Shown here: piece after piece, positions 1-25,820 of the stretch
How the letters are laid out: each line of letters begins with the position of its first letter
Numbering within the stretch: position 1 is the first letter of the stretch
UHGV virus genome: UHGV-0236108
Length of the DNA: 31,992 nucleotides
Direction: 5' to 3' (one strand)
Source of the DNA: a virus
Position numbers and translations under genes: made by a program
Notes under the pieces: generated by a model
Databases searched by the model: none
What the model saw: only the letters and a program-made list of their open reading frames with translations
What the model was told of the DNA's origin: nothing

Positions 1-84
1 CTGATGTCCGGCGGTGCTTTTGCCGTTACGCACCACCCCGTCAGTAGCTGAACAGGAGGGACAGCTGATAGAAACAGAAGCCAC
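1..84 (-). CDS. insA: IS1 InsA, N-terminal 28 codons (partial, runs off window)
   Basis: Minus-strand GTG at 84-82 followed by codons for [28 protein letters not shown], the known InsA N-terminus with its CxxC zinc-finger start. Confidence 0.8.
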
Positions 85-139
85 TGGAGCACCTCAAAAA
101 CACCATCATACACTAAATCAGTAAGTTGGCAGCATCACC
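1..139 (-). mobile_element. IS1 insertion sequence, terminal 139 bp (element continues left of window)
   Basis: Reverse complement of 1-139 reads GGTGATGCTGCCAACTTACTGATTTAGTGTATGATGG...GTGGCTTCTGTTTCTATCAGCTGTCCCTCC, which I recognise as the IS1 terminal inverted repeat plus insA start region; element terminus at 139. Confidence 0.85.
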
Positions 140-975
140 GCAAATGCCATTAATACTTCTAAAGTATATCTTCTATAAAATTTAACAAAACCAACATAGA
201 AAACATAGACGAAGAAAAAGCTAAGCATTATTGAAAGTAAACTATAAAGATAATCACTATGAGTACATAATCGATAAATAAAGGTTGGAACTGATACCCA
301 AAATGAAATTATAAAGATTAAACATATGTTTCTGCAAAAACCATATAATGCAACATAGTTTTGAATTTTTGTTTGATGTTGTTTTGAAAACTCATAAACA
401 TAATGATATGCCAATCTGAAGAGATCATCATCAAGTCCGTTTTTATCTTGTAATAATTGGCGATTTGTTATGAACTTTTTCTCATAACCTTCTTTGATCA
501 TTAACCATGTTGTATTAGCTAAATGAAATGGTAGAGATTGAGAATAACATAGTTTTTGTGTTATAAAATCCCATAGTATTATTGGACATAATACGCATTT
601 GATTATGCGATTCTTTATTTTTGTTTTTTTATCAGCGCTTCTCTCATCGCAGGATGGGCTACAAATGCTTTCTGAGGTATCTATCAATTTTTTAAATAGA
701 TATTTGGAAGGATATCCTAATTCTTTATTCATGTATTTTTCGATAAAAAATGCTGACGTGATAGAAATAAAATGTCCAGCTATATAAGATATAATAACTA
801 TTGAAGCGTAGTTCAAAATGCCAAAGATTTGACTTTGACCTCTGAGCAATTCACTTAAGTCAATAACAATATCTAGATCGAATGTCAAACCACAGAAATA
901 CATTAATAGGATAAAAAAACCACCTGGTATTAAATATCCAAGAAAGTCATAGAATGAGAATGGATTTTGATTCAT
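118..975 (-). CDS. AT-rich polytopic membrane protein, 3' end truncated by IS1 (last ~6 codons and stop supplied by the IS1 inverted repeat)
   Basis: ORF-track 118..999; ATG at 975 has a GGAG 7 nt upstream, the TTG at 999 does not. Hydrophobic segments at both ends (FFILLMYFCGL, IVIISYIAGHFISITSAFFI, CLIFIISFWVSV, LLSIMLSFFFVYVFYVGFV). Very low GC versus neighbours. Reading frame crosses the IS1 terminus at 139. Confidence 0.55.
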   Translation of the reverse strand: MNQNPFSFYDFLGYLIPGGFFILLMYFCGLTFDLDIVIDLSELLRGQSQIFGILNYASIVIISYIAGHFISITSAFFIEKYMNKELGYPSKYLFKKLIDTSESICSPSCDERSADKKTKIKNRIIKCVLCPIILWDFITQKLCYSQSLPFHLANTTWLMIKEGYEKKFITNRQLLQDKNGLDDDLFRLAYHYVYEFSKQHQTKIQNYVALYGFCRNICLIFIISFWVSVPTFIYRLCTHSDYLYSLLSIMLSFFFVYVFYVGFVKFYRRYTLEVLMAFAVMLPTY

Positions 976-1083
976 TGTTGCTCTCCAATAATTTTTCAAT
1001 TTGTAATATAACCTATATCTATATGTTAATAAATTACTTATATGTTCTTTTATGGCAGAGTTTGAATTCGTACGTGCTGATTT

Positions 1084-1608
1084 TTACGACTCAGTTAACT
1101 CTTTAAAGCGTTCCATAAACATCCCATAGGTATGGCCTGGCGACAGTGGAATAACTTTGAACATCTCTGTTGCCGGGATACCTTCCAGTACGGGCCAGAA
1201 AGAGCCATCATCAAGCCCGAGATCGCGGCGTTCGGTTGCCAGCATGATGAGATCGGCATATTTCACGGGCGTACTCATAACCGGGGGTAACCCGTATTTC
1301 TCACGGATTACGGCGTCTATTTTTTCTTCCATCCGTTTATAGTCAGGAAGAAGGCGTTTCAGTGGCGCCGGGATGTCCTGGCAATACGCTTCTGTTGCAT
1401 CATGCATTAACGCTTCAAAAGCAAATTCCTGCGGTACCAGTTGGCTGCAAAGCACCGCATGTTGGGCGACGCTGTAGAAATGTGAAAGATGTCCTGCAAA
1501 GCGACAGATATTTGAAAGAGAAACCGCGATATCGTTAATAACGATGTCGTCTTTATTTATCCTGTCATAATAAAAATGCTTCCCGGAAAAAGTTTTAATA
1601 AATGACAT
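1084..1608 (-). CDS. yfdR: HD-domain phosphohydrolase (YfbR-like 5'-nucleotidase fold), CPS-53 YfdR-like
   Basis: H...HD...D metal-binding pattern (GHLSHFYSVAQHAV ... ALMHDATEAY ... D); start placed at ATG 1608 with GTGGAG Shine-Dalgarno (ORF-track GTG at 1635 has none); symbol from remembered similarity and gene order, unverified. Confidence 0.65.
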   Translation of the reverse strand: MSFIKTFSGKHFYYDRINKDDIVINDIAVSLSNICRFAGHLSHFYSVAQHAVLCSQLVPQEFAFEALMHDATEAYCQDIPAPLKRLLPDYKRMEEKIDAVIREKYGLPPVMSTPVKYADLIMLATERRDLGLDDGSFWPVLEGIPATEMFKVIPLSPGHTYGMFMERFKELTES

Positions 1609-2625: not shown

Positions 2626-2988
2626 TTAATGACCTGCTGCGCGGAGTTTTCCGTCAGGTTCACCGGCAAGAGTCAGTAATTGTCCCTGGTCTTCCTGCAG
2701 AATAGTCAGGCGACCACCGCGATTGACATACATCGGCGTTTCGGTGGTGTCTTCTTCGGAAATTTTCCCGCGGTTAGTCGGACGAACATATGAGAGTTTG
2801 TGTTTTATTTTCACACGGTTCTCATCAAACGGTTCGATTTCCAGGTTGAGCGAAACCTTACCTTTGGTTTTCGTGTTCATCACACCGGAAGCGACTTCAC
2901 TGAGAACTGCGCCGATTTTGGTTTCAAATACGCCGCCGTCCAGCTCCCCGATAAATTCCTGCACGTTGGTACTGCGTTCGCTAGCCAT
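2626..2988 (-). CDS. yfdP: small prophage protein, CPS-53 YfdP-like (120 aa)
   Basis: Internal ATG at 2988 preceded by GAGGAG; the longer ORF-track extension to 3306 is Arg/Cys-rich and runs into structured noncoding DNA, so judged not translated. Confidence 0.55.
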   Translation of the reverse strand: MASERSTNVQEFIGELDGGVFETKIGAVLSEVASGVMNTKTKGKVSLNLEIEPFDENRVKIKHKLSYVRPTNRGKISEEDTTETPMYVNRGGRLTILQEDQGQLLTLAGEPDGKLRAAGH

Positions 2989-3425
2989 TTTGCTGCTCCT
3001 CATCATATCGACCCTGCAAGGTCGGTTGGTTTCTCCACAAAACAGAGAAGAACACCTGCGGTGGCAGTCGCCCCGGTGGATTGGGTTATGAGCCCGTCGT
3101 CCGGTGATGCTCTTCTCTGTTTTGTAAAAAGAGCGGTACCAGCCGGAAGCAAGGGTACAAGCTGGTACCGCCAGGACTACACACAGCATAAAGTTGTGGT
3201 GCCGGGTGCCTCCCGGTGCCTGGCGAAGGTTGCACACCAGGCGGGTGGGTATCCACAGAAGGTCGACTGTCAGCCTCAACCTTAACCCGCGTGCGCTGAG
3301 CCGCATTCACCACAACGCTAAGGATTCTCTCAGGTTGAAAATACTTAGCTGTTATGTGCCTGTCTTTTCACCACTTCAGGCTCGGTGGTATCCTTTTAAG
3401 CCCGTATACATAAAAGGAAAATCAA

Positions 3426-3671
3426 ATGACTTTTGATGAAAAAGAACTTGATAATGCAATTAATAAAATCATCGTAACGTCGCTCTTTTCCTGTCTTAGT
3501 GACACTCAGCAAAAACAGTTCTACGAATCGGCTTTCAACATGATCGAGCGTTGTTGTTTCTGCGATGCCGACGAGTTACCTGAAAAAATCAGGAAACAGT
3601 TGGCTGATGCTCTTCGAGTGCGACTTTCTGACCAATTTTCTGAAATGTGCTCTCCGAATTTGGACAAATAG
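3426..3671 (+). CDS. hypothetical small protein (81 aa)
   Basis: AAAGGAAA Shine-Dalgarno 5 nt before ATG 3426; Cys-containing acidic protein; no family recognised. Confidence 0.45.
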   Translation: MTFDEKELDNAINKIIVTSLFSCLSDTQQKQFYESAFNMIERCCFCDADELPEKIRKQLADALRVRLSDQFSEMCSPNLDK

Positions 3672-3864
3672 AAAAAGGCCATTTCCATTCAGGGTCTGAT
3701 GGAAATACTTCAGCCTGTTCCAAAGCACGGCGTAAAGAGAACACAACTCCAGCCATAATCTGATGTTTCCCATTGGTCCAGCTATCGCCGCTCTGATCTA
3801 CAGGGGCGGCTATGTCGTATGACCAAACGACTTCACAGTTATTGTTTAAAATCTGGACTTTCAT
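3589..3864 (-). CDS. hypothetical protein, possible first gene of the leftward early operon (92 aa from second ATG)
   Basis: ORF-track 3589..3885; ATG 3864 has an AGGTG upstream. 3' end overlaps the convergent 3426..3671 ORF by 83 nt and contains a hairpin, so the true extent is uncertain. Confidence 0.3.
   Translation of the reverse strand: MKVQILNNNCEVVWSYDIAAPVDQSGDSWTNGKHQIMAGVVFSLRRALEQAEVFPSDPEWKWPFSICPNSESTFQKIGQKVALEEHQPTVS
3681..3706 (-). terminator. hairpin with downstream T-tract on the minus strand (possible tL-type terminator or attenuator)
   Basis: ATTTCCAT / ATGGAAAT 8-bp inverted repeat with 10-nt loop; on the minus strand followed by GGCCTTTTTCTATTT. Confidence 0.35.
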
Positions 3865-4071
3865 TTCATACACCTGCTTTAACATGAGTGCCTAGTGGCA
3901 CAACATGACTCAACGAATCATCCTGGACTTCATATGCCCCAGGCGGCTACTTCGTGGGCGTCCTGCCTGTTCGTTTTTGACATTTACTGACTGCTTACGA
4001 CACATGCACCGTGTTGCAACCAGATTTTGTTGTAATCCTGTAGTTGGTCTGGAACAAAAGATAAAATTAAA

Positions 4072-4108
4072 TTGCGAGATATGCAAGTAATATTTGCGAG
4101 ATATGCAA
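4072..4108. promoter_or_regulatory. OL-like operator pair: two identical 15-bp palindromes TTGCGAGATATGCAA (4072-4086, 4094-4108) overlapping a likely leftward early promoter
   Basis: Exact direct duplication of a dyad-symmetric 15-mer 7 bp apart, lying beyond the cI terminator as OL/PL does in lambda; same motif family as the site at 4876-4890. Confidence 0.55.
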
Positions 4109-4119
4109 ATTTATAGGTA

Positions 4120-4142
4120 ATAAAAAGCCACCTTTCGGTGGC
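4120..4142 (-). terminator. rho-independent terminator downstream of the repressor gene
   Basis: GCCACC-TTTC-GGTGGC stem-loop (4127-4142) followed on the minus strand by TTTTTA (4121-4126), 20 bp past the cI stop. Confidence 0.6.
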
Positions 4143-4162
4143 CGATGGATGGGATATTGAGG

Positions 4163-4855
4163 TTAATTATGTCTCTTAAGGGTTTGCGACTGACTGATTA
4201 AGACCTTTCCAAAGACCATGAATCGGTGTTCGTTTTCGCTAGTAATTCCCCATTCACGGTAAATCTGGTTATCAGAAATCACCAGCAGTTTGTCAGGAAT
4301 CATTTGAAGTCTTTTAACGTATATTTTGTCATCAAAACCAAAGACATATATACCATCACCATCAAACTGATTGATGCTGACATCAACGAAGATGAGATCT
4401 CCTGGCTCAATGGTTGGACACATACTGTCCCCACGAACGTTGATAACTTTGATGTGATTGGCTGGTCGTCCGCCGAACATTGATACAGCATTATCAGTTC
4501 TGTATTCGATGGCATGAATCACATCAATGACATCACCGCCCTGGATAAGGCCATTTCCCGCACTGGCACTGATATCCAGCATTTCAATACGGAACACATC
4601 CTTCACCTGCGCAACATCCTCATTATTACTGTTTTTATATACAGTATTACTTTTGTGGGCAGAGGTAAAGAGATCAGCAATATCAACACCTAAGCTCTTG
4701 GCAATATTACTCAGTGTTTGTTCGGTAAATTGTTTTTGCTTACCCGTTTCTAAGCGCGAGATGTTCGCCGCATCTACTCCTATCGCTTCAGCGAGATCGG
4801 CGATTTTCATGTTCTTCGCTTGGCGAAGTTGTCTGACTCGGTTTCCTATGTTCAT
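4163..4855 (-). CDS. CI-type prophage repressor: N-terminal XRE helix-turn-helix plus C-terminal S24 (LexA-like) autopeptidase domain
   Basis: HTH segment MKIADLAEAIGVDAANISRLETG; C-terminal half with the S24-family layout (VRGDSMCPTIEPGDLIFVD ... KIYVKRL); no Shine-Dalgarno before ATG 4855, consistent with a leaderless PRM-type transcript. Confidence 0.9.
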   Translation of the reverse strand: MNIGNRVRQLRQAKNMKIADLAEAIGVDAANISRLETGKQKQFTEQTLSNIAKSLGVDIADLFTSAHKSNTVYKNSNNEDVAQVKDVFRIEMLDISASAGNGLIQGGDVIDVIHAIEYRTDNAVSMFGGRPANHIKVINVRGDSMCPTIEPGDLIFVDVSINQFDGDGIYVFGFDDKIYVKRLQMIPDKLLVISDNQIYREWGITSENEHRFMVFGKVLISQSQTLKRHN

Positions 4856-5243: not shown

Positions 5244-5756
5244 GTGGTACGTGAAAGCTGTCAGAAAAACTATCGCAGCGTTGCCGGGGGGTACGCTGAA
5301 GCTGCTGACTGGCTGGATGTAACAGAGAACGCATTATTTAACCGCCTTCGTGCCGATGGCGATCAGATTTTCCCGCTGGGATGGGCAATGATTTTGCAAC
5401 GTGCTGGTGGAACTCACTTCATTGCTGACGCTGTGGCGCAGTCTGCAAATGGCGTCTTTGTGTCTCTTCCTGATGTCGAGGATGTGGACAACGCCGATAT
5501 CAACCAACGCCTGCTGGAGGTCATTGAACAGATCGGCAGTTATTCAAAACAGATTCGTTCAGCAATTGAAGACGGTGTAGTGGAACCGCATGAGAAGACA
5601 GCAATTAACGACGAGCTGTACCTCTCAATTTCGAAGCTGCAGGAGCATGCAGCACTGGTCTACAAAATTTTTTGCATTTCAGAAAGTAATGACGCCCGCG
5701 AGTGTGCAGCTCCGGGCGCCGTGGCGTGTCGTGACTGTGGAGAAACTAACGCATGA
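5244..5756 (+). CDS. CII-like regulatory protein (phage 186 CII / CP76-type), ~170 aa
   Basis: Position immediately after cro; segment [35 protein letters not shown] resembles the remembered 186 CII segment NKLNPEQPHQFTPPELWLLTDLTEDSTLVDGFLAQ; GTG start, similar length to 186 CII (169 aa). Confidence 0.5.
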
Positions 5757-6091
5757 ACAGTTTAACAACACACTACCGTCGCTCGCAACTGATTGCGCTT
5801 CCTGTACCGGGTGGAAAAGCGAAGGTGGAGTATTGCTATGCAGTAAATGTACCAGGTGGCAGGGTAATTGTAACCCACAGCTTTGCAGAGTGGGCTGTGG
5901 GTGATTTTAACCGGCAAAAGGAGACAGTCCTTTGCGACAAGTTAACCGCTGGTTCAAAGATCACTACGGAGTGCCCGTCAGAGTCATTCGTTGGGAGCCG
6001 GAAACACAACGGGTTATCTACCTCCGTGAAGGCTATGAGCATGAGTGCTTCAGCCCGCTCGAACAGTTTCGTCGTAAATTCAGGGAAATAG
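5753..6091 (+). CDS. hypothetical protein (112 aa); gene model uncertain, see findings
   Basis: ATG overlaps the upstream stop (ATGA) with a GGAGAAA upstream; N-terminal half protein-like, C-terminal half Ser-rich and overlapped by an alternative-frame ORF with a stronger ribosome-binding site. Confidence 0.35.
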
Positions 6092-6100
6092 AGGTCGGTC

Positions 6101-7042
6101 ATGAGCACTAAATTAACCGGCTATGTATGGGATGGTTGCGCAGCGTCAGGCATGAAATTATCCAGCGTGGCAATTATGGCCCGCCTGGCTGATTTCAGTA
6201 ATGACGAAGGTGTGTGCTGGCCATCAATTGAAACCATTGCCCGTCAGATTGGCGCGGGGATGAGTACCGTCAGGACGGCTATCGCACGGCTGGAAGCAGA
6301 AGGCTGGTTAACGCGTAAGGCGCGTCGCCAGGGTAACCGCAATGCGTCGAATGTTTATCAGCTTAACGTTGCGAAGCTTCAGGCAGCGGCATTTTCTCAA
6401 CTGTCAGATTCTGACCCGTCAAAATCTGACGCATCAAAATCTGACCCGTCAAAATTTGATGCGTCGAAATCTGGCAAAAAAGCGGGTTTTCACCCGTCAG
6501 AATCTGGCGGGGATCCGTCAGTAAAATCAAAACATGATCCGTCATATAAAAAACCTTCTCGTCCGGACGCTTCGCAACCGGACACGCAGACGGATGAACA
6601 GGATTTTTTAACTCGCCATCCTGATGCGGTTGTATTCAGCCCTAAAAAGCGCCAGTGGGGAACGCAGGATGATTTGACCTGCGCACAGTGGCTCTGGAAA
6701 AAAATCATCGCCCTGTACGAGCAGGCCGCCGAATGTGACGGCGAGGTGGTTCGTCCCAAAGAACCGAACTGGACAGCCTGGGCAAACGAAATTCGCCTGA
6801 TGTGTGTGCAGGATGGTCGTACTCACAAACAAATCTGCGAGATGTACAGCCGCGTCAGCCGCGATCCGTTCTGGTGCCGTAACGTGCTCAGCCCGTCGAA
6901 GCTGCGGGAAAAATGGGATGAGCTTTCCCTGCGCTTATCGCCGTCCGTCAGCACGTACACAGAAAAACGCGAAGACCCGTACTTCAAAGCCAGTTACGAC
7001 AATGTGGACTACAGCCAGATCCCGGCAGGATTCAGGGGGTGA
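6101..7042 (+). CDS. replication initiation protein, lambda O-like (N-terminal winged-helix DNA-binding domain, iterons inside the gene)
   Basis: N-terminus with HTH-like segment (ETIARQIGAGMSTVRTAIARLEAEGWL); codons 100-150 are the in-frame read-out of the iteron array (SDSDPSKSDASKSDPSKFDASKSG). Confidence 0.75.
   Translation: MSTKLTGYVWDGCAASGMKLSSVAIMARLADFSNDEGVCWPSIETIARQIGAGMSTVRTAIARLEAEGWLTRKARRQGNRNASNVYQLNVAKLQAAAFSQLSDSDPSKSDASKSDPSKFDASKSGKKAGFHPSESGGDPSVKSKHDPSYKKPSRPDASQPDTQTDEQDFLTRHPDAVVFSPKKRQWGTQDDLTCAQWLWKKIIALYEQAAECDGEVVRPKEPNWTAWANEIRLMCVQDGRTHKQICEMYSRVSRDPFWCRNVLSPSKLREKWDELSLRLSPSVSTYTEKREDPYFKASYDNVDYSQIPAGFRG
6403..6555. repeat. origin-of-replication-like element: five tandem 15-bp iterons (6403-6477), degenerate copies, then an AT-rich stretch
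   Basis: GTCAGATTCTGACCC / GTCAAAATCTGACGC / ATCAAAATCTGACCC / GTCAAAATTTGATGC / GTCGAAATCTGGCAA head to tail, then CCGTCAGAATCTGGCGG and an A/T-rich tract (aaaatcaaaacatgatccgtcatataaaaaacc). Confidence 0.65.
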
Positions 7043-7044
7043 GC

Positions 7045-7536
7045 ATGAGTCTTTTGAATGACGTTCAGAAATTCATTGAAGCCCATCCGGGCTGTACTTC
7101 CGGAGACATTGCGGATGCTTTTGCAGGTTACTCACGGCAGCGCGTTCTGCAGTCAGCAAGCAAGTTACGTCAGAGTGGGCGTGTGGCTCACCGTTGTGAA
7201 GGAGATACACGCAGACATTTCTCGCGCCTGACTGAGAGAGCGCAGGAGCCGGAACCACAACCAGTTCGTGAAACCAGACCTGTGCGCAAGTTCTATGTCG
7301 GCACTAACGACCCCCGGGTGATTTTGTGCCTGACCCGCCAGGCTGAAGAACTGGAGTCGAGGGGCTTATACCGTCGTGCTGCAACGGTGTGGATGGCGGC
7401 ATTCCGTGAAAGCCACTCCCAGCCAGAACGAAACAATTTTCTGGCGCGTCGTGAGCGGTGCTTACGGAAAAGCAGCAAGCGGGCTGCATCAGGTGAAGAG
7501 TGGTATCTGTCAGGGAATTACGTGGGGGCTGAATGA
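7045..7536 (+). CDS. PerC-like regulatory protein (CPS-53 YfdN-like)
   Basis: C-terminal LESRGLYRRAATVWMAAF...RRERCL resembles the PerC-family signature; GGGGG Shine-Dalgarno before ATG 7045 (ORF-track GTG 7039). Confidence 0.5.
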   Translation: MSLLNDVQKFIEAHPGCTSGDIADAFAGYSRQRVLQSASKLRQSGRVAHRCEGDTRRHFSRLTERAQEPEPQPVRETRPVRKFYVGTNDPRVILCLTRQAEELESRGLYRRAATVWMAAFRESHSQPERNNFLARRERCLRKSSKRAASGEEWYLSGNYVGAE

Positions 7537-8186
7537 GTAATAAATATTGCCAGGCGCTGGTGGAACTGCGGAACAAACCAGCCCATGAACTGAAGGAAGT
7601 GGGCGATCAGTGGCGCACGCCGGACAACATTTTCTGGGGAATTAACACCCTGTTTGGTCCGTTTGTTCTGGATCTGTTCACTGACGGTGATAACGCCAAA
7701 TGTGCCGCGTATTACACGGCGGAAGACAACGCGCTGGCGCATGACTGGTCAGAACGCCTTGCGGAGCTTAAAGGTGCTGCCTTTGGTAATCCCCCATACA
7801 GCCGCGCCAGTCAGCATGAGGGGCAATACATCACCGGCATGCGTTACATCATGAAACATGCCAGTGCCATGCGTGATAAGGGCTGGCGCTATGTTTTCCT
7901 GATCAAAGCTGCCACCAGCGAAGTGTGGTGGCCGGAAGATGCGGACCATATTGCTTTTATTCGCGGGCGTATTGGTTTTGAACTGCCTGCCTGGTTTATC
8001 CCGAAGGACGAGAAGCAGGTGCCGACAGGAGCGTTCTTCGCTGGTGCTATTGCTGTTTTCGATAAGACCTGGAAGGGATCGGCAATCAGCTACATCGGGC
8101 GCGATGAACTTGAGGCATGTGGTGAGGCCTTTCTGGCGCAGGTTCGCCAGCAGGCAGAAAAACTGGTCAGGGAGATGGCGGCATGA
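7533..8186 (+). CDS. phage orphan DNA N6-adenine methyltransferase (Dam-type)
   Basis: Catalytic motif IV NPPY (FGNPPYS); ATGA start/stop overlap with upstream gene; no adjacent restriction endonuclease gene. Confidence 0.75.
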   Translation: MSNKYCQALVELRNKPAHELKEVGDQWRTPDNIFWGINTLFGPFVLDLFTDGDNAKCAAYYTAEDNALAHDWSERLAELKGAAFGNPPYSRASQHEGQYITGMRYIMKHASAMRDKGWRYVFLIKAATSEVWWPEDADHIAFIRGRIGFELPAWFIPKDEKQVPTGAFFAGAIAVFDKTWKGSAISYIGRDELEACGEAFLAQVRQQAEKLVREMAA

Positions 8187-8509
8187 CGACGTTAACTCAA
8201 TGCCAGCAGCAGGTGCTGGATATGCTGATTTCTTATCACAAAGAACGAGGCTTTCCGCCAACCAATCAGGAGGTGGCAACCATGCTGGGATACCGTTCAG
8301 TGAATGCAGCGGTGGAGCATCTTCGCGCACTGGAGAAAAAAGGCGTCATCACGATAAAGCGTGGCGTGGCCCGGGGCATCACGCTTCATACCGCGGTGAA
8401 GGACGACGACAGCGAGGCGGTCGGGATTATCCGCTCACTGCTTGCCGGTGAGGAAAACGCAAGGCTGCGTGCAACCCACTGGTTACATGAGAGGGGCCTG
8501 AAAGTATGA
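8183..8509 (+). CDS. LexA N-terminal DNA-binding-domain-only protein (no S24 peptidase domain)
   Basis: LTQCQQQVLDMLISYHKERGFPPTNQEVATMLGYRSVNAAVEHLRALEKKGVI parallels the remembered LexA N-terminus ([53 protein letters not shown]); protein ends after ~108 aa. Confidence 0.7.
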   Translation: MTTLTQCQQQVLDMLISYHKERGFPPTNQEVATMLGYRSVNAAVEHLRALEKKGVITIKRGVARGITLHTAVKDDDSEAVGIIRSLLAGEENARLRATHWLHERGLKV

Positions 8510-8895
8510 AGCTGATCCTGCCTTTCCCGCCCAGCGTGAACACGTACTGGCGACACCCCAACAAAGGGGCGTTTGCTGGTAAGAGCCTGATAAGCGCGGC
8601 GGGGCGAAAATTCCAGAGCGCGGCGTGCGCAGCAATAGTTGAGCAGTTACGTCGTCTGCCAAAACCAACGTCGGCACCTGCTTCAGTGGAGATCGTGTTG
8701 TTTCCTCCGGATAACCGGATCCGCGATCTGGACAACTATAACAAGGCGCTGTTTGACGCCCTGACCCACGCGGGTGTGTGGGAAGACGACAGTCAGGTGA
8801 AAAGAATGCTGGTGGAGTGGGGACCGGTTATCCCGGAAGGGAAGGTCGAGATCACTATCAGTAAGTACGAGAAACCGGCGGGTGCAGCCGCCTGA
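8506..8895 (+). CDS. rusA: Holliday-junction resolvase RusA
   Basis: LPFPPSVNTYWRH and DLDNYNKALFDALTHAGVWEDDSQV match the RusA signature (LPWPPSNNRYYRH ... [25 protein letters not shown]). Confidence 0.9.
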   Translation: MKLILPFPPSVNTYWRHPNKGAFAGKSLISAAGRKFQSAACAAIVEQLRRLPKPTSAPASVEIVLFPPDNRIRDLDNYNKALFDALTHAGVWEDDSQVKRMLVEWGPVIPEGKVEITISKYEKPAGAAA

Positions 8896-11139: not shown

Positions 11140-11886
11140 TTAATCTGGCATTATGGTAGATAATTGTGGGCTAGGTTTAACCCCGTAGGTTTCTGATATT
11201 CTTTTAACGTTGATACCTACGATTTTTCTGACAGCTCCCAACGAAAATTCTAACTCTTTAATCCCTGCGTCTTTAGAAGTGTTGTTCATATAATAACGGC
11301 ATGCTTCTCGAATTGACTTGCAAACGATAAATAGAGGTGATTCATCTGGGATTTGAGAAAGCAAAGAGGTCAAACATGTTCTTAACTCTTTGAGTGATTC
11401 GGCAACAAAACAGGGGTTTTCAAGATGATATTCTACGAACAAAGCCCCTTTATCATCCAATTCATTTATAATCTTTTTTGCCAGATTTCTTTCATCATGC
11501 TGTTGAATATATTTCAAAGCATCGAAGGTAATATTAATCGAACCTTCAAGACAGGAGCTTATAAGGCTTTCATGATCTTTTTTCCATTTTCTTAATACAG
11601 GTGCCGGATAGTCTAGCCCCTGATTCTTATCTATTAATACAGAACAAGTAGCACACAGCCATATGCCATTGTTAATTGACTTCCTTTCTGTTTCTGATTG
11701 TGACATGTCATAGCGTGGGCCATCAGGAGATGCTGCACATATGTGAGCAGCAACTCCTGTCTTGATTGATTTATTGCCATCAATTGATGGGCCAATGGTC
11801 AATCTAGGGCATGAAGGGTTTGAACAAATGAATGCTGCCCGCTCTGCTAATTTTTTTATAGTGTCTTTAGAAAAATTATGTCGCAT
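11140..11886 (-). CDS. AT-rich accessory protein with N-terminal HNH-type nuclease motif and an uncharacterised ~150-aa C-terminal domain
   Basis: C-x4-C ... H ... N ... C-x2-C spacing (FICSNPSCP ... VAAHICAASPDGPRY ... NNGIWLCATCS) typical of HNH beta-beta-alpha-metal folds; opposite strand to the flanking Q and lysis genes; low GC; own terminator. Confidence 0.6.
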   Translation of the reverse strand: MRHNFSKDTIKKLAERAAFICSNPSCPRLTIGPSIDGNKSIKTGVAAHICAASPDGPRYDMSQSETERKSINNGIWLCATCSVLIDKNQGLDYPAPVLRKWKKDHESLISSCLEGSINITFDALKYIQQHDERNLAKKIINELDDKGALFVEYHLENPCFVAESLKELRTCLTSLLSQIPDESPLFIVCKSIREACRYYMNNTSKDAGIKELEFSLGAVRKIVGINVKRISETYGVKPSPQLSTIMPD

Positions 11887-23955: not shown

Positions 23956-25789
23956 ATTTGAGCTTAAGGCGTTGATCACCGGTGTCGACAGGCTTTCTCC
24001 CGCGCTGTCGAAAATGCAAAAGAAAATCCGGGGATTTAAACGCCAGGCGGAAGAAGCGTCACAGGGTGGGCTGGCGCTTGGTGGCGGACTGGCTGCGGGT
24101 CTGACGCTTTCCCTGAAATCTTATGCCGATCAGGAAAACGCCGCCACCGGGCTGAAAGTTGCCATGATGGATGCGAACGGTGAGGTCGGAAAGAGCTTTC
24201 AGGACATCAATAAACTGGCTATTGGTCTGGGTAACCAGCTACCCGGTACAACGGCTGATTTCCAGAACATGATGCAGATGCTGGTGCGTCAGGGGATCCC
24301 GGCAGAAAACATTCTTGGCGGTGTGGGTAAAGCGACCGCTTATCTTGCGGTACAACTGAAAAAAACACCGGAAGCGGCTGCTGAGTTTGCTGCAAAGATG
24401 CAGGATGCTACCGGAACGGCGTCAGAAGACATGATGGGGCTGTTCGACACTATCCAGAAGGCGTTTTATCTGGGCGTTGACGATACCAACATGTTGTCCT
24501 TCTTCACTAAAACCAGTTCTGTTCTGAAGATGGTGAACAAGGACGGTCTTCAGGCTGCACAGAGCCTTGCCCCCATCAGCGTCATGATGGATCAGATGGG
24601 GATGAACGGAGAGTCGGCAGGTAATGCCCTGCGAAAAGTTATCCAGTCCGGATTAAGCGTTAAGAAAATCAGGGACGTCAATAAAGTCATGGCCCGCCAG
24701 AAACTCGGGGTACAGCTCGATTTTACTGACGGCAAAGGAAGTTTTGGCGGTCTTGATAACATGTTCAGGCAACTGGCAAAGCTGCGAAAACTGACCGACG
24801 TTAAACGAACTGGTGTACTTAAGGCAATATTTGGTGATGATGCCGAAACCCTTCAGGTGGTCAATGCACTAATCGATAAAGGAAAGGATGGCTACGATCA
24901 GATCCAGCAGAAGATGAATAAACAGGCCAGCCTGAATAAACGTGTTCAGGCACAGCTTGGTACGCTGTCCAACCTGTGGGAGGCAATGACAGGGACCGCA
25001 ACTAACGGCCTTGCGGCTATTGGCGGTACATTTTCTGGTGACGCCAAAAATATCACGCAATGGCTGGGGGAGTTGGGGGAGAAATTCACGAAGTTTGCGG
25101 ATGAAAATCCCCGGGTTATTCGCGGCGTCGTCGGGCTTGCTGCCGGTCTTGCGATTCTGAAACTGGGATTGATGGGCGTTGGCGGTGCCATCAGTATTGT
25201 CAGCAGGATCATGTCGATGACGCCGATTGGCATGATTACGACGGCGATAGCCATGGCTGCGGGATTAATTATCACTAACTGGGATGTTGTCGGACCTTAT
25301 TTTAAGAAACTCTGGGAAACCATTGGTCCTTATTTTGAGGCTGGCTGGGAACTTCTGAAGAAAGTTTTTGCCTGGTCGCCGCTGGGGATGGTCATCAATA
25401 ACTGGGGACCGGTTGTTAAGTGGTTTCAGGATATGTGGGACAAGCTGAAGCCAATTATTGAGTGGTTTACCGACAGTTCCGGTGACACGGTCGATGCCAT
25501 TAACTCGGCGCAGTGGGGCGCGGGTGCTTATGATGCTTATGGGACGGGAATACCGGCGCGGGGATACACACCTTATCCGGCGGTGGATCCGGCTCAGTCA
25601 AACAACGCCTCTAATGCCACAGGCCCGAATCCCTTCATGATTAACAAAGCTTCTGCGGCAAAAGTTGATGGTGAGATCAAGGTATCTTTTGTGAATTCGC
25701 CTCCGGGTATGCGGGTTATGGAAACGCGATCCAGCGGTATCGACGTGAATCACGACGTTGGCTACACCCGATTTGGTATGGGGGGCTGA
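23948..25789 (+). CDS. tail tape measure protein
   Basis: 613 aa; Gly/Ala-rich hydrophobic stretches and coiled-coil regions; position after the chaperone pair. Confidence 0.85.
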   Translation: MAEFELKALITGVDRLSPALSKMQKKIRGFKRQAEEASQGGLALGGGLAAGLTLSLKSYADQENAATGLKVAMMDANGEVGKSFQDINKLAIGLGNQLPGTTADFQNMMQMLVRQGIPAENILGGVGKATAYLAVQLKKTPEAAAEFAAKMQDATGTASEDMMGLFDTIQKAFYLGVDDTNMLSFFTKTSSVLKMVNKDGLQAAQSLAPISVMMDQMGMNGESAGNALRKVIQSGLSVKKIRDVNKVMARQKLGVQLDFTDGKGSFGGLDNMFRQLAKLRKLTDVKRTGVLKAIFGDDAETLQVVNALIDKGKDGYDQIQQKMNKQASLNKRVQAQLGTLSNLWEAMTGTATNGLAAIGGTFSGDAKNITQWLGELGEKFTKFADENPRVIRGVVGLAAGLAILKLGLMGVGGAISIVSRIMSMTPIGMITTAIAMAAGLIITNWDVVGPYFKKLWETIGPYFEAGWELLKKVFAWSPLGMVINNWGPVVKWFQDMWDKLKPIIEWFTDSSGDTVDAINSAQWGAGAYDAYGTGIPARGYTPYPAVDPAQSNNASNATGPNPFMINKASAAKVDGEIKVSFVNSPPGMRVMETRSSGIDVNHDVGYTRFGMGG

Positions 25790-25791
25790 TA

Positions 25792-25820
25792 CCCCGCTTA
25801 AACACGGGTTTTGTTGTTTA
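25792..25820 (+). terminator. weak hairpin plus T-tract after tape measure gene
   Basis: CCCCG...CGGG short stem followed by TTTTGTTGTTT. Confidence 0.35.

Follow-up and report, generated by a model that had tools for sequence, protein, structure and literature searches.

An IS1 end replaces the unconserved tail of an AT-rich prophage cargo gene whose product is a putative distant relative of Csx27

The insertion sequence IS1 favours AT-rich targets, and AT-rich prophage cargo often contains IS1 junctions. A complete element measures 768 bp, has an inverted repeat at each end and, upon simple insertion, is accompanied by a target duplication of 8-9 bp. The second described system that bears on the present locus is Csx27, an accessory membrane protein of type VI-B1 CRISPR-Cas13b (Smargon et al., bioRxiv 10.1101/092577). 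Passages of PMC7642515 and PMC11662929 cite Makarova et al. 2019 for a Csx27 superfamily of four-helix membrane proteins, and report competence, ubiquitin-like and WYL genes together with other branches of the Csx27 family. The stretch of DNA analysed here, the 31,992-nt virus genome UHGV-0236108 (hereafter the window), starts within an IS1 and leads from there directly into an AT-rich gene for a membrane protein with a putative distant relationship to Csx27 (Table 1). The IS1 event as such is ordinary, already-known biology, and the residual interest of the locus lies in the unnamed Csx27-like family to which the clipped gene belongs.

Table 1 Features at the start of the window.
Feature	Position	Strand	Remarks
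IS1 left end	1..139	-	Cut by window start; terminal IS1 base is 139
23-bp IS1 left terminal inverted repeat, GGTGATGCTGCCAACTTACTGAT	139->117 (117..139)	-	Exact, read from sequence
IS1 insA, first 28 codons	1..84	-	GTG start at 84, reads towards position 1; same strand as prophage gene
Chimeric ORF, 285 codons + stop	118..975	-	Native residues 1-279, V280 re-encoded by IS1, then MLPTY and stop from IS1
Native part of 288-aa cargo gene (WP_001075212.1; PHROG 12528)	140..975	-	100% identical to GCUET01
AT-rich spacer (26% GC) upstream of gene	976..1083	-	Carries GGAG Shine-Dalgarno
yfdR (5'-deoxynucleotidase), upstream neighbour fixing the slot	1084..1608	-	RefSeq annotation of identical DNA; Pfam YfbR-like, E 2.7e-5

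The first 139 bp of the window are, on the minus strand, the left end of an IS1 of the IS1A/IS1R type. They agree at 139 of 139 positions with reference copies, which include IS1 in more than 5,000 plasmid records, R100 among them (E 2e-66), and the IS1 of E. coli GCUET01 (locus L004, 6666-6804). While the window covers only these 139 bp of the element, they hold an identical left end with its 23-bp inverted repeat and the start of insA, the frame of which opens about 55 nt inside the IS1 left end; the 28 codons present match the InsA N-terminus, and an IS1A family transposase is annotated at the IS1 in relatives. An earlier note, made from the letters of the sequence, had read positions 1-139 as an IS1 end with inverted repeat and insA start and had called for an alignment to IS1, and the identity over all 139 bp bears this reading out. 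The terminal repeat doubles as codons 280-285 and the TGA stop (118-120) of a chimeric ORF, which reads GCA TTT GC/G GTG ATG CTG CCA ACT TAC TGA across the junction (slash). IS1 contributes the final base of codon 279, the codons for the six residues VMLPTY and the stop, and the proposal that the last ~6 codons of this frame are IS1 sequence is thereby exact. The ATG at 975 is the likely start of the ORF, since the GGAG precedes it at a spacing of 5 nt. A consensus scan of the 108-bp upstream spacer found no consensus promoter, sites being fewer than in shuffled sequence.

Intact relatives show what the gene has lost. A megablast search with window 1-1100 found the gene intact in 205 of 5,426 complete E. 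coli genomes, including UTI89, NU14, S88, APEC O1 and the type strain ATCC 11775; the matches all start at window 137-140, and none of the 205 has IS1 at the junction site. In ATCC 11775 (locus L001) and others the intact gene comprises 867 nt and encodes 288 aa (WP_001075212.1), ending ...LMAFAVLQSNDTIR. The window allele is identical to the intact allele through V280 and ends ...LMAFAVMLPTY. Native DNA resumes at window 140 (L001 6004), and beyond this point the DNA of the intact allele runs into the native tail (...TGTACTTCAAAG...). In all, 31 nt of native sequence are missing, namely the last base of codon 279, the nine codons after it and the stop codon. IS1 sequence encodes A279 and V280 anew, and the nine native residues VLQSNDTIR give way to VMLPTY. 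The earlier note had supposed the removal of an unknown length of the 3' end and had suggested a search for IS1-free relatives, which recovers the intact 288-aa allele and shows the loss to be both measurable and trivial. Over positions 140-975, the window is 100% identical to GCUET01 and at least 99.8% identical to 30 complete genomes among the matches listed.

GCUET01 (NZ_CM183448.1) is the only genome that is near-identical to the window, the next-best genomes being 97-99.6% identical. Across window 140-31992 (31.85 kb), the two differ by a single substitution, by one indel in a G-run at window ~5291 and by an IS421 insertion located past the tape-measure gene. Its copy of the cargo gene is intact (L004 10003-10869); next come a xis-like gene of 68 aa, a tyrosine integrase (WP_033560358.1) that has an arm-binding domain, and a trio of genes for a HATPase, a STAS protein and a 199-aa product. 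A complete 768-bp IS1 lies at L004 6037-6804, in the same orientation as the window IS1 and with its IRL facing the prophage. This copy, one of about eight in the 4.9-Mb genome, is flanked by cgaatagtg and gattctagg, i.e. without a target duplication, and genes are truncated on both sides, the left one being an autotransporter fragment (...GGTACGAATAGTG joined to GGTAATGAC). The missing duplication indicates an earlier rearrangement that involved this IS1. As a lineage marker, the 282-aa neighbour protein that IS1 clips in GCUET01 was considered and rejected: it occurs on 674 contigs, evidently also where the intact gene has been called from another start, and is uninformative.

The presence, in a near-identical genome, of both an intact gene and a same-orientation IS1 3.2 kb to its left favours an IS1-mediated adjacent deletion as the origin of the window junction, and we assign this reading a probability of roughly 0.6. 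In such an event, a resident IS1 located as in GCUET01, 3,229 bp to the left, would have used its IRL end for an intramolecular transposition into the AT-rich gene, and the adjacent deletion would have removed L004 6805-10033 (3,229 bp), comprising three cargo genes, int, xis and the tail of the gene. The product would have the same junction, the same IS1 end identity and the same orientation as are found in the window, and the geometry relative to the GCUET01 IS1 (same orientation, IRL joined to new DNA) is that which such deletions produce. The earlier note had stated that IS1 inserted into this gene. An IS1 terminus does lie inside the gene, but an insertion is not established by it, given that the same junction could come from adjacent deletion by a GCUET01-type IS1.

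A simple IS1 transposition 31 nt before the end of the gene, after which xis, int and the cargo genes would persist beyond the 768-bp element, is a serious minority reading. The gene has the low GC content (28%) that IS1 prefers in its targets, and the junction sits at the exact IS1 terminus. Simple insertion predicts a target duplication of 8-9 bp, here a left junction of ...GAAGTACAGCAAATGCC joined to GGTAATGACTCC with a 9-bp duplication of GCAAATGCC, and xis/int beyond; no assembly shows this other junction, and neither the genome scans nor look-ups of the 285-aa and 293-aa products found a second IS1 junction. The IS1 of GCUET01 may post-date the split between the two strains, which also differ by the IS421 insertion, and GCUET01 is alone among complete genomes in having IS1 at that site. 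Simple insertion would, however, turn the occurrence of an IS1 in one near-identical genome, 3.2 kb off, on the right side and in the right orientation, into a coincidence, the chance of which is well below 1%.

The position of the gene within the prophage has a counterpart in K-12 CPS-53, where the syntenic early-left operon (yfdP-yfdQ-yfdR, slot, excisionase) carries yfdS-yfdT-ypdJ in the same slot before torI. The place is the same, whereas the content is unrelated, being here one 288-aa membrane-protein gene. In all 205 of the 205 complete genomes that carry the gene it is intact and followed by the xis-integrase module, with the xis-like gene and integrase of intact relatives starting 41 nt downstream. 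The assignment of the gene to the yfdS/yfdT slot after yfdR, made from the window itself, is confirmed by its location between yfdR and xis in these relatives, and the gene is as strongly AT-rich as had been claimed (28.3% GC for 140-975 vs. 51.8% for the whole window). The e14-like prophage of EC96 has an empty slot, in which yfdR is directly followed by xisE-intE. With a GC content of 28% and a yfdR-xis slot that is filled differently in K-12 and empty in EC96, the gene is an optional, horizontally acquired prophage cargo gene or 'moron', and shows both the deviant GC content and the presence or absence at a fixed slot (205 of 5,426 genomes carry it) of such genes. The prophage itself is of the myovirus type and otherwise complete, with genes for terminase, portal, capsid, sheath, tube, tape measure and baseplate. 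The IS1 would either part xis and the integrase from the early-left transcript or have removed them, and the prophage is probably locked in place. This effect on the excision module is likely the main biological consequence of the event, larger than any effect on the protein: a complete prophage would be grounded by loss of the module, and by adjacent deletion the case would illustrate how a resident IS1 prunes a prophage end.

The product of the gene is a membrane protein with four predicted helices. Hydropathy analysis gives four hydrophobic segments, centred at about residues 19-31, 66-69, 216-228 and 250-258, and the AF2 model (pLDDT 89, pTM 0.88) has long helices at residues 8-27, 45-86, 198-237 and 243-281. 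The earlier note had proposed 4 or more TM helices around a ~150-aa soluble region; the membrane protein and the four helices stand, whereas there are no further helices and TM2 and TM3 are separated by a shorter soluble region of ~110-125 aa. By the positive-inside rule, residues 80-205 (21 K/R) and the C-terminus are predicted to be cytoplasmic. PHROG 12528, a family of unknown function, matches the protein from end to end (E 8e-174). No Pfam family was found for the window protein or for any of 73 family members, no fold relatives were found in the PDB or BFVD, and a profile search of solved structures was likewise empty.

The family is nevertheless large. A HMMER search of 1.84 billion cluster representatives (50% identity) gave at least 942 relatives, 210 of them at E<=1e-30 and nearly all with a length of 260-320 aa, from Proteobacteria, Bacteroidota, Firmicutes, Chloroflexi, Acidobacteria and other phyla. 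Across the 73 sequences, which are 28-51% identical to the window protein, 11 positions are invariant and 24 nearly so. The invariant or near-invariant polar residues are D10, H68, S74, E79, H191, E195, H200, K203, N206, R215, K265 and E273; they fall at the predicted cytoplasmic helix ends, which suggests a specific ligand or catalytic site. A CPBP/Abi-type intramembrane protease was considered as an explanation for the conserved His and Glu residues and rejected, since Pfam gives no match and the motifs are spaced differently. Homologues also occur in phage cargo positions elsewhere: Klebsiella phage P7641 has one just upstream of an xis-like gene and integrase, and a P2-like phage has one between gpA and gpQ, the slot where P2 carries old and tin. 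Clustering of the neighbours from 78 family loci gave no conserved partner gene. The neighbours include integrases, glycosyltransferases, WecG-type transferases and sugar epimerases, as well as assorted defence genes (type I restriction-modification, a CBASS cyclase, Old, AriA and a Mokosh-like helicase).

The PADLOC model of Csx27 matches the window protein with an E-value of 1.2e-5, aligning residues 6-268 with model positions 4-188 of 206. The same model matches 54 of the 73 diverse family members, with a best E of 2.2e-10, and the phage homologues match too. The VI-B accessory model 'tm_4' matches 17 of the 73 and the NCBIfam Csx27 model, which is independent, matches 11 (best E 2e-6); besides Csx27 and tm_4, no family recurs among the members' matches. 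Because the PADLOC Csx27, tm_4 and NCBIfam models all match the family and no other family recurs, it is credible, on profile similarity, that the gene product is a distant, solitary relative of Csx27. The likeness consists of four predicted TM helices and of a similarity that covers nearly the whole Csx27 model and is common to most of the family. The differences are substantial: the window protein has a cytoplasmic helical domain of ~110 aa between TM2 and TM3, and its family is solitary, often prophage-borne and without competence, ubiquitin-like or WYL companions. Competence, ubiquitin-like and WYL-HTH partners are all absent from the 25 most frequent Pfam families of 130 immediate neighbours. 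A scan for cas13b covered nine of the 13 neighbours of at least 800 aa from the 78 family loci and gave no Cas13b model match, and at the window locus the neighbours are yfdR and IS1 or xis-int. The window protein is thus not Csx27 proper, since its 14.9 bits lie below the curated cutoff of 65 of the NCBIfam equivalog (NF040557), it is ~85 aa longer, neither cas13b nor a CRISPR array was found nearby, at this locus or at the 78 others, and the reported partners are lacking. The literature yielded no mention of Csx27-like prophage genes or of WP_001075212.1.

What the protein does for the lysogen may be guessed from gene location and distant homology only, and our best guess, a tentative one, is a role in the exclusion or abortion of phages. 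An inner-membrane protein expressed from the lysogen would exclude or abort a superinfecting phage via the conserved polar site at the cytoplasmic membrane face. Lambda RexB, P22 SieA, T4 Imm and HK97 gp15 are likewise small inner-membrane proteins and AT-rich temperate-phage cargo, in a variable slot near the integration module; they have no detectable sequence or fold similarity to the window protein, and the likeness is an analogy only. Among the defence models of PADLOC-DB 2.0, the window protein has no match beyond Csx27 and the tm_4 accessory models; the lack of a conserved partner gene, of a fold relative in the PDB or BFVD and of a significant promoter prediction likewise counts against the guess. 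A more specific and rather speculative version is that the 288-aa protein represents a large, unannotated and solitary branch of the Csx27 superfamily, carried as cargo by temperate phages beside xis-int and at the gpA-gpQ hotspot of P2, and that this single gene provides a membrane barrier to superinfecting phage or to incoming nucleic acid. Were this so, it would hint at what Csx27 contributes to Cas13b systems. The unnamed Csx27-like family, widespread and recurrent in the cargo slots of temperate phages, would be a cheap candidate for a phage-defence screen.

The main alternative, though an unlikely one, is that the gene encodes a membrane enzyme of lysogenic conversion that modifies the envelope and has a lipid-linked or cell-surface substrate. 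In temperate enterobacterial phages, genes for O-antigen modification usually lie beside xis/int, which this gene adjoins (compare yfdGHI beside intS in CPS-53), and a dozen invariant or near-invariant polar residues would fit a catalytic or ligand site better than a passive pore; these residues are, however, predicted to be cytoplasmic, and neither Pfam nor NCBIfam shows similarity to known transferase or acyltransferase families. The glycosyltransferases, WecG-type transferases and sugar epimerases that are sometimes found beside family members in other phyla could be taken as a further hint, but glycosyltransferases are a small minority of the 130 neighbours and no partner is conserved.

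Whatever its role, the protein has probably come through the event unharmed. The last strongly conserved columns in the 73 sequences are M276/A277, and the tails past the V280 column vary from 0 to 45 aa, with a median of 8.5. In 17 aligned enterobacterial homologues the conserved block ends ...LEVLMAF(A/S)V and is followed by tails of 2-9 residues. Tblastn matches in 80 genomes of many phyla usually end at query residue 276-284, mostly 280-281, and matches to the 50%-identity cluster representatives end at profile positions ~277-285. Because conservation in the family stops at ~277 and natural tails have 0-45 aa, the entire conserved core is kept in the fusion; the swapped tail lies beyond the last conserved family position, which argues that the four-helix protein would most likely still be made and functional. 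Truncation by IS1, as claimed by the earlier note, therefore applies at the DNA level and probably not functionally, given that the lost tail is unconserved and the conserved core is kept. That note had also reasoned that its claim would fail if intact homologues ended at the same residue, and they come close to doing so, with 21 of the 72 homologues having no more than 5 aa after the V280 column. More generally, a reading frame that continues into an IS need not be inactivated, and comparison with the intact allele shows here that an unconserved tail of nine residues has been swapped.

An inactivating fusion, in which the protein is made unstable by the new tail, or the mRNA by read-through into IS1, leaving a pseudogene in the source strain, is improbable. 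A polar native tail (LQSNDTIR) has been exchanged for a hydrophobic/aromatic one (MLPTY), and these five new residues could affect the C-terminal amphipathic helix, but the AF2 model retains its last helix to residue 281 with high confidence. The tail is fairly similar among the closest enterobacterial homologues (LQ[SR]KD.I.), whereas across the family no position of it is conserved and Enterobacter-type homologues stop 2-4 residues past the junction column.

The junction is also on record outside the window. A Logan assembly contig (run ERR7339076, L003) that is present in two samples matches window 112-1222 exactly, junction included, and the junction is therefore no quirk of a single assembly. 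It is absent from the 5,426 complete E. coli genomes and the exact junction was not found in a scan of one genome per species. These absences, and a window that starts within IS1 as draft contigs often do, could be explained by an assembly artefact, with a repeat misjoined at a contig end and a gene that is intact in the organism, but this is highly improbable, as the break coincides with the very last base of the IS1 inverted repeat instead of falling at an arbitrary point, the Logan contig shares the junction, and a 50-kb NCBI contig is on record as a source of the exact 285-aa product. An exact 293-aa product is on record in NCBI/Logan as well; this 293-codon version with a TTG start is a mere alternative start of the gene caller, and its look-up leads to one 1.1-kb Logan contig that ends inside IS1.

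When the prophage in the window is compared with its near-identical counterpart in the E. coli genome GCUET01 (NZ_CM183448.1), the most conspicuous differences involve IS elements. In GCUET01, an IS421 copy lies past the tape-measure gene, with a 12-bp target sequence duplicated on either side of it; the window has this sequence without the element. The two prophages thus differ mainly by IS events. The resident IS1 of GCUET01 lacks a target-site duplication and cuts short two genes, one for an autotransporter and, on its other flank, one for a 303-aa protein; a deletion or recombination event mediated by this copy has therefore already occurred in the GCUET01 lineage. A smaller difference concerns the 5' region of ymfL, where a G-run comprises 6 G in the window vs. 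7 G in GCUET01; the one-base-shorter run shifts the frame, so that the window ORF starts at 5244 and not at about 5206. Either the frameshift is genuine, or the homopolymer was misread in the window or in the GCUET01 assembly.

Features discussed in this part, with coordinates in the window or in the locus sequences L004 (GCUET01) and L001 (ATCC 11775)
Feature	Position	Strand	Remarks
Gene upstream of yfdP	window 2626-3306		frameshifted in all relatives examined, according to RefSeq
G-run in ymfL	window about 5285-5291
DUF6650 gene, 248 aa	window 11140-11886	minus	low GC (about 36%); between Q antiterminator and holin
IS421 target sequence	window 25783-25794		IS421 in GCUET01, absent from window
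Resident IS1	GCUET01 6037-6804
Three-gene set past integrase	GCUET01 6823-8630; ATCC 11775 2730-4600		in relatives; absent from window

Several genes of these prophages may represent cargo. The set past the integrase in relatives encodes the 303-aa protein, which weakly matches a histidine-kinase-like ATPase, together with a 108-aa STAS-like DUF4325 protein and a 199-aa protein of unknown function. None of the three has a match among the PADLOC defence-system models, and the trio could constitute an uncharacterised cargo system. If the IS1 junction in the window arose by an adjacent deletion, its prophage would have lost all three genes. Within the window, the gene labelled 'DUF6650' in relatives is likely a second defence cargo gene. 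Its product has a match in PADLOC to PDC-M68A, a family of candidate defence proteins (E 7.5e-27), and resembles, at its N-terminus, models of CBASS/SAVED-HNH effector endonucleases. In sister prophages H38-H45 (e.g. NZ_CP051219.1; 97% identity), the part of the early region where the window differs encodes, at some point, a protein with a KwaB-like (Kiwa) domain, which again marks the early region as a cargo exchange zone.

The 288-aa membrane protein, whose gene is clipped by IS1 in the window, has many 'partial' database entries from draft E. coli and Salmonella assemblies, including forms of 193 aa and 252 aa, in clusters of 112 and 58 sequences respectively, and others of 218, 222, 232 and 125 aa. 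These entries suggest that contig breaks are frequent inside this AT-rich gene, possibly caused by further IS insertions; the gene is intact in all 205 complete genomes that carry it. Finally, the gene upstream of yfdP overlaps long ORFs on both strands, and local GC reaches about 58%.
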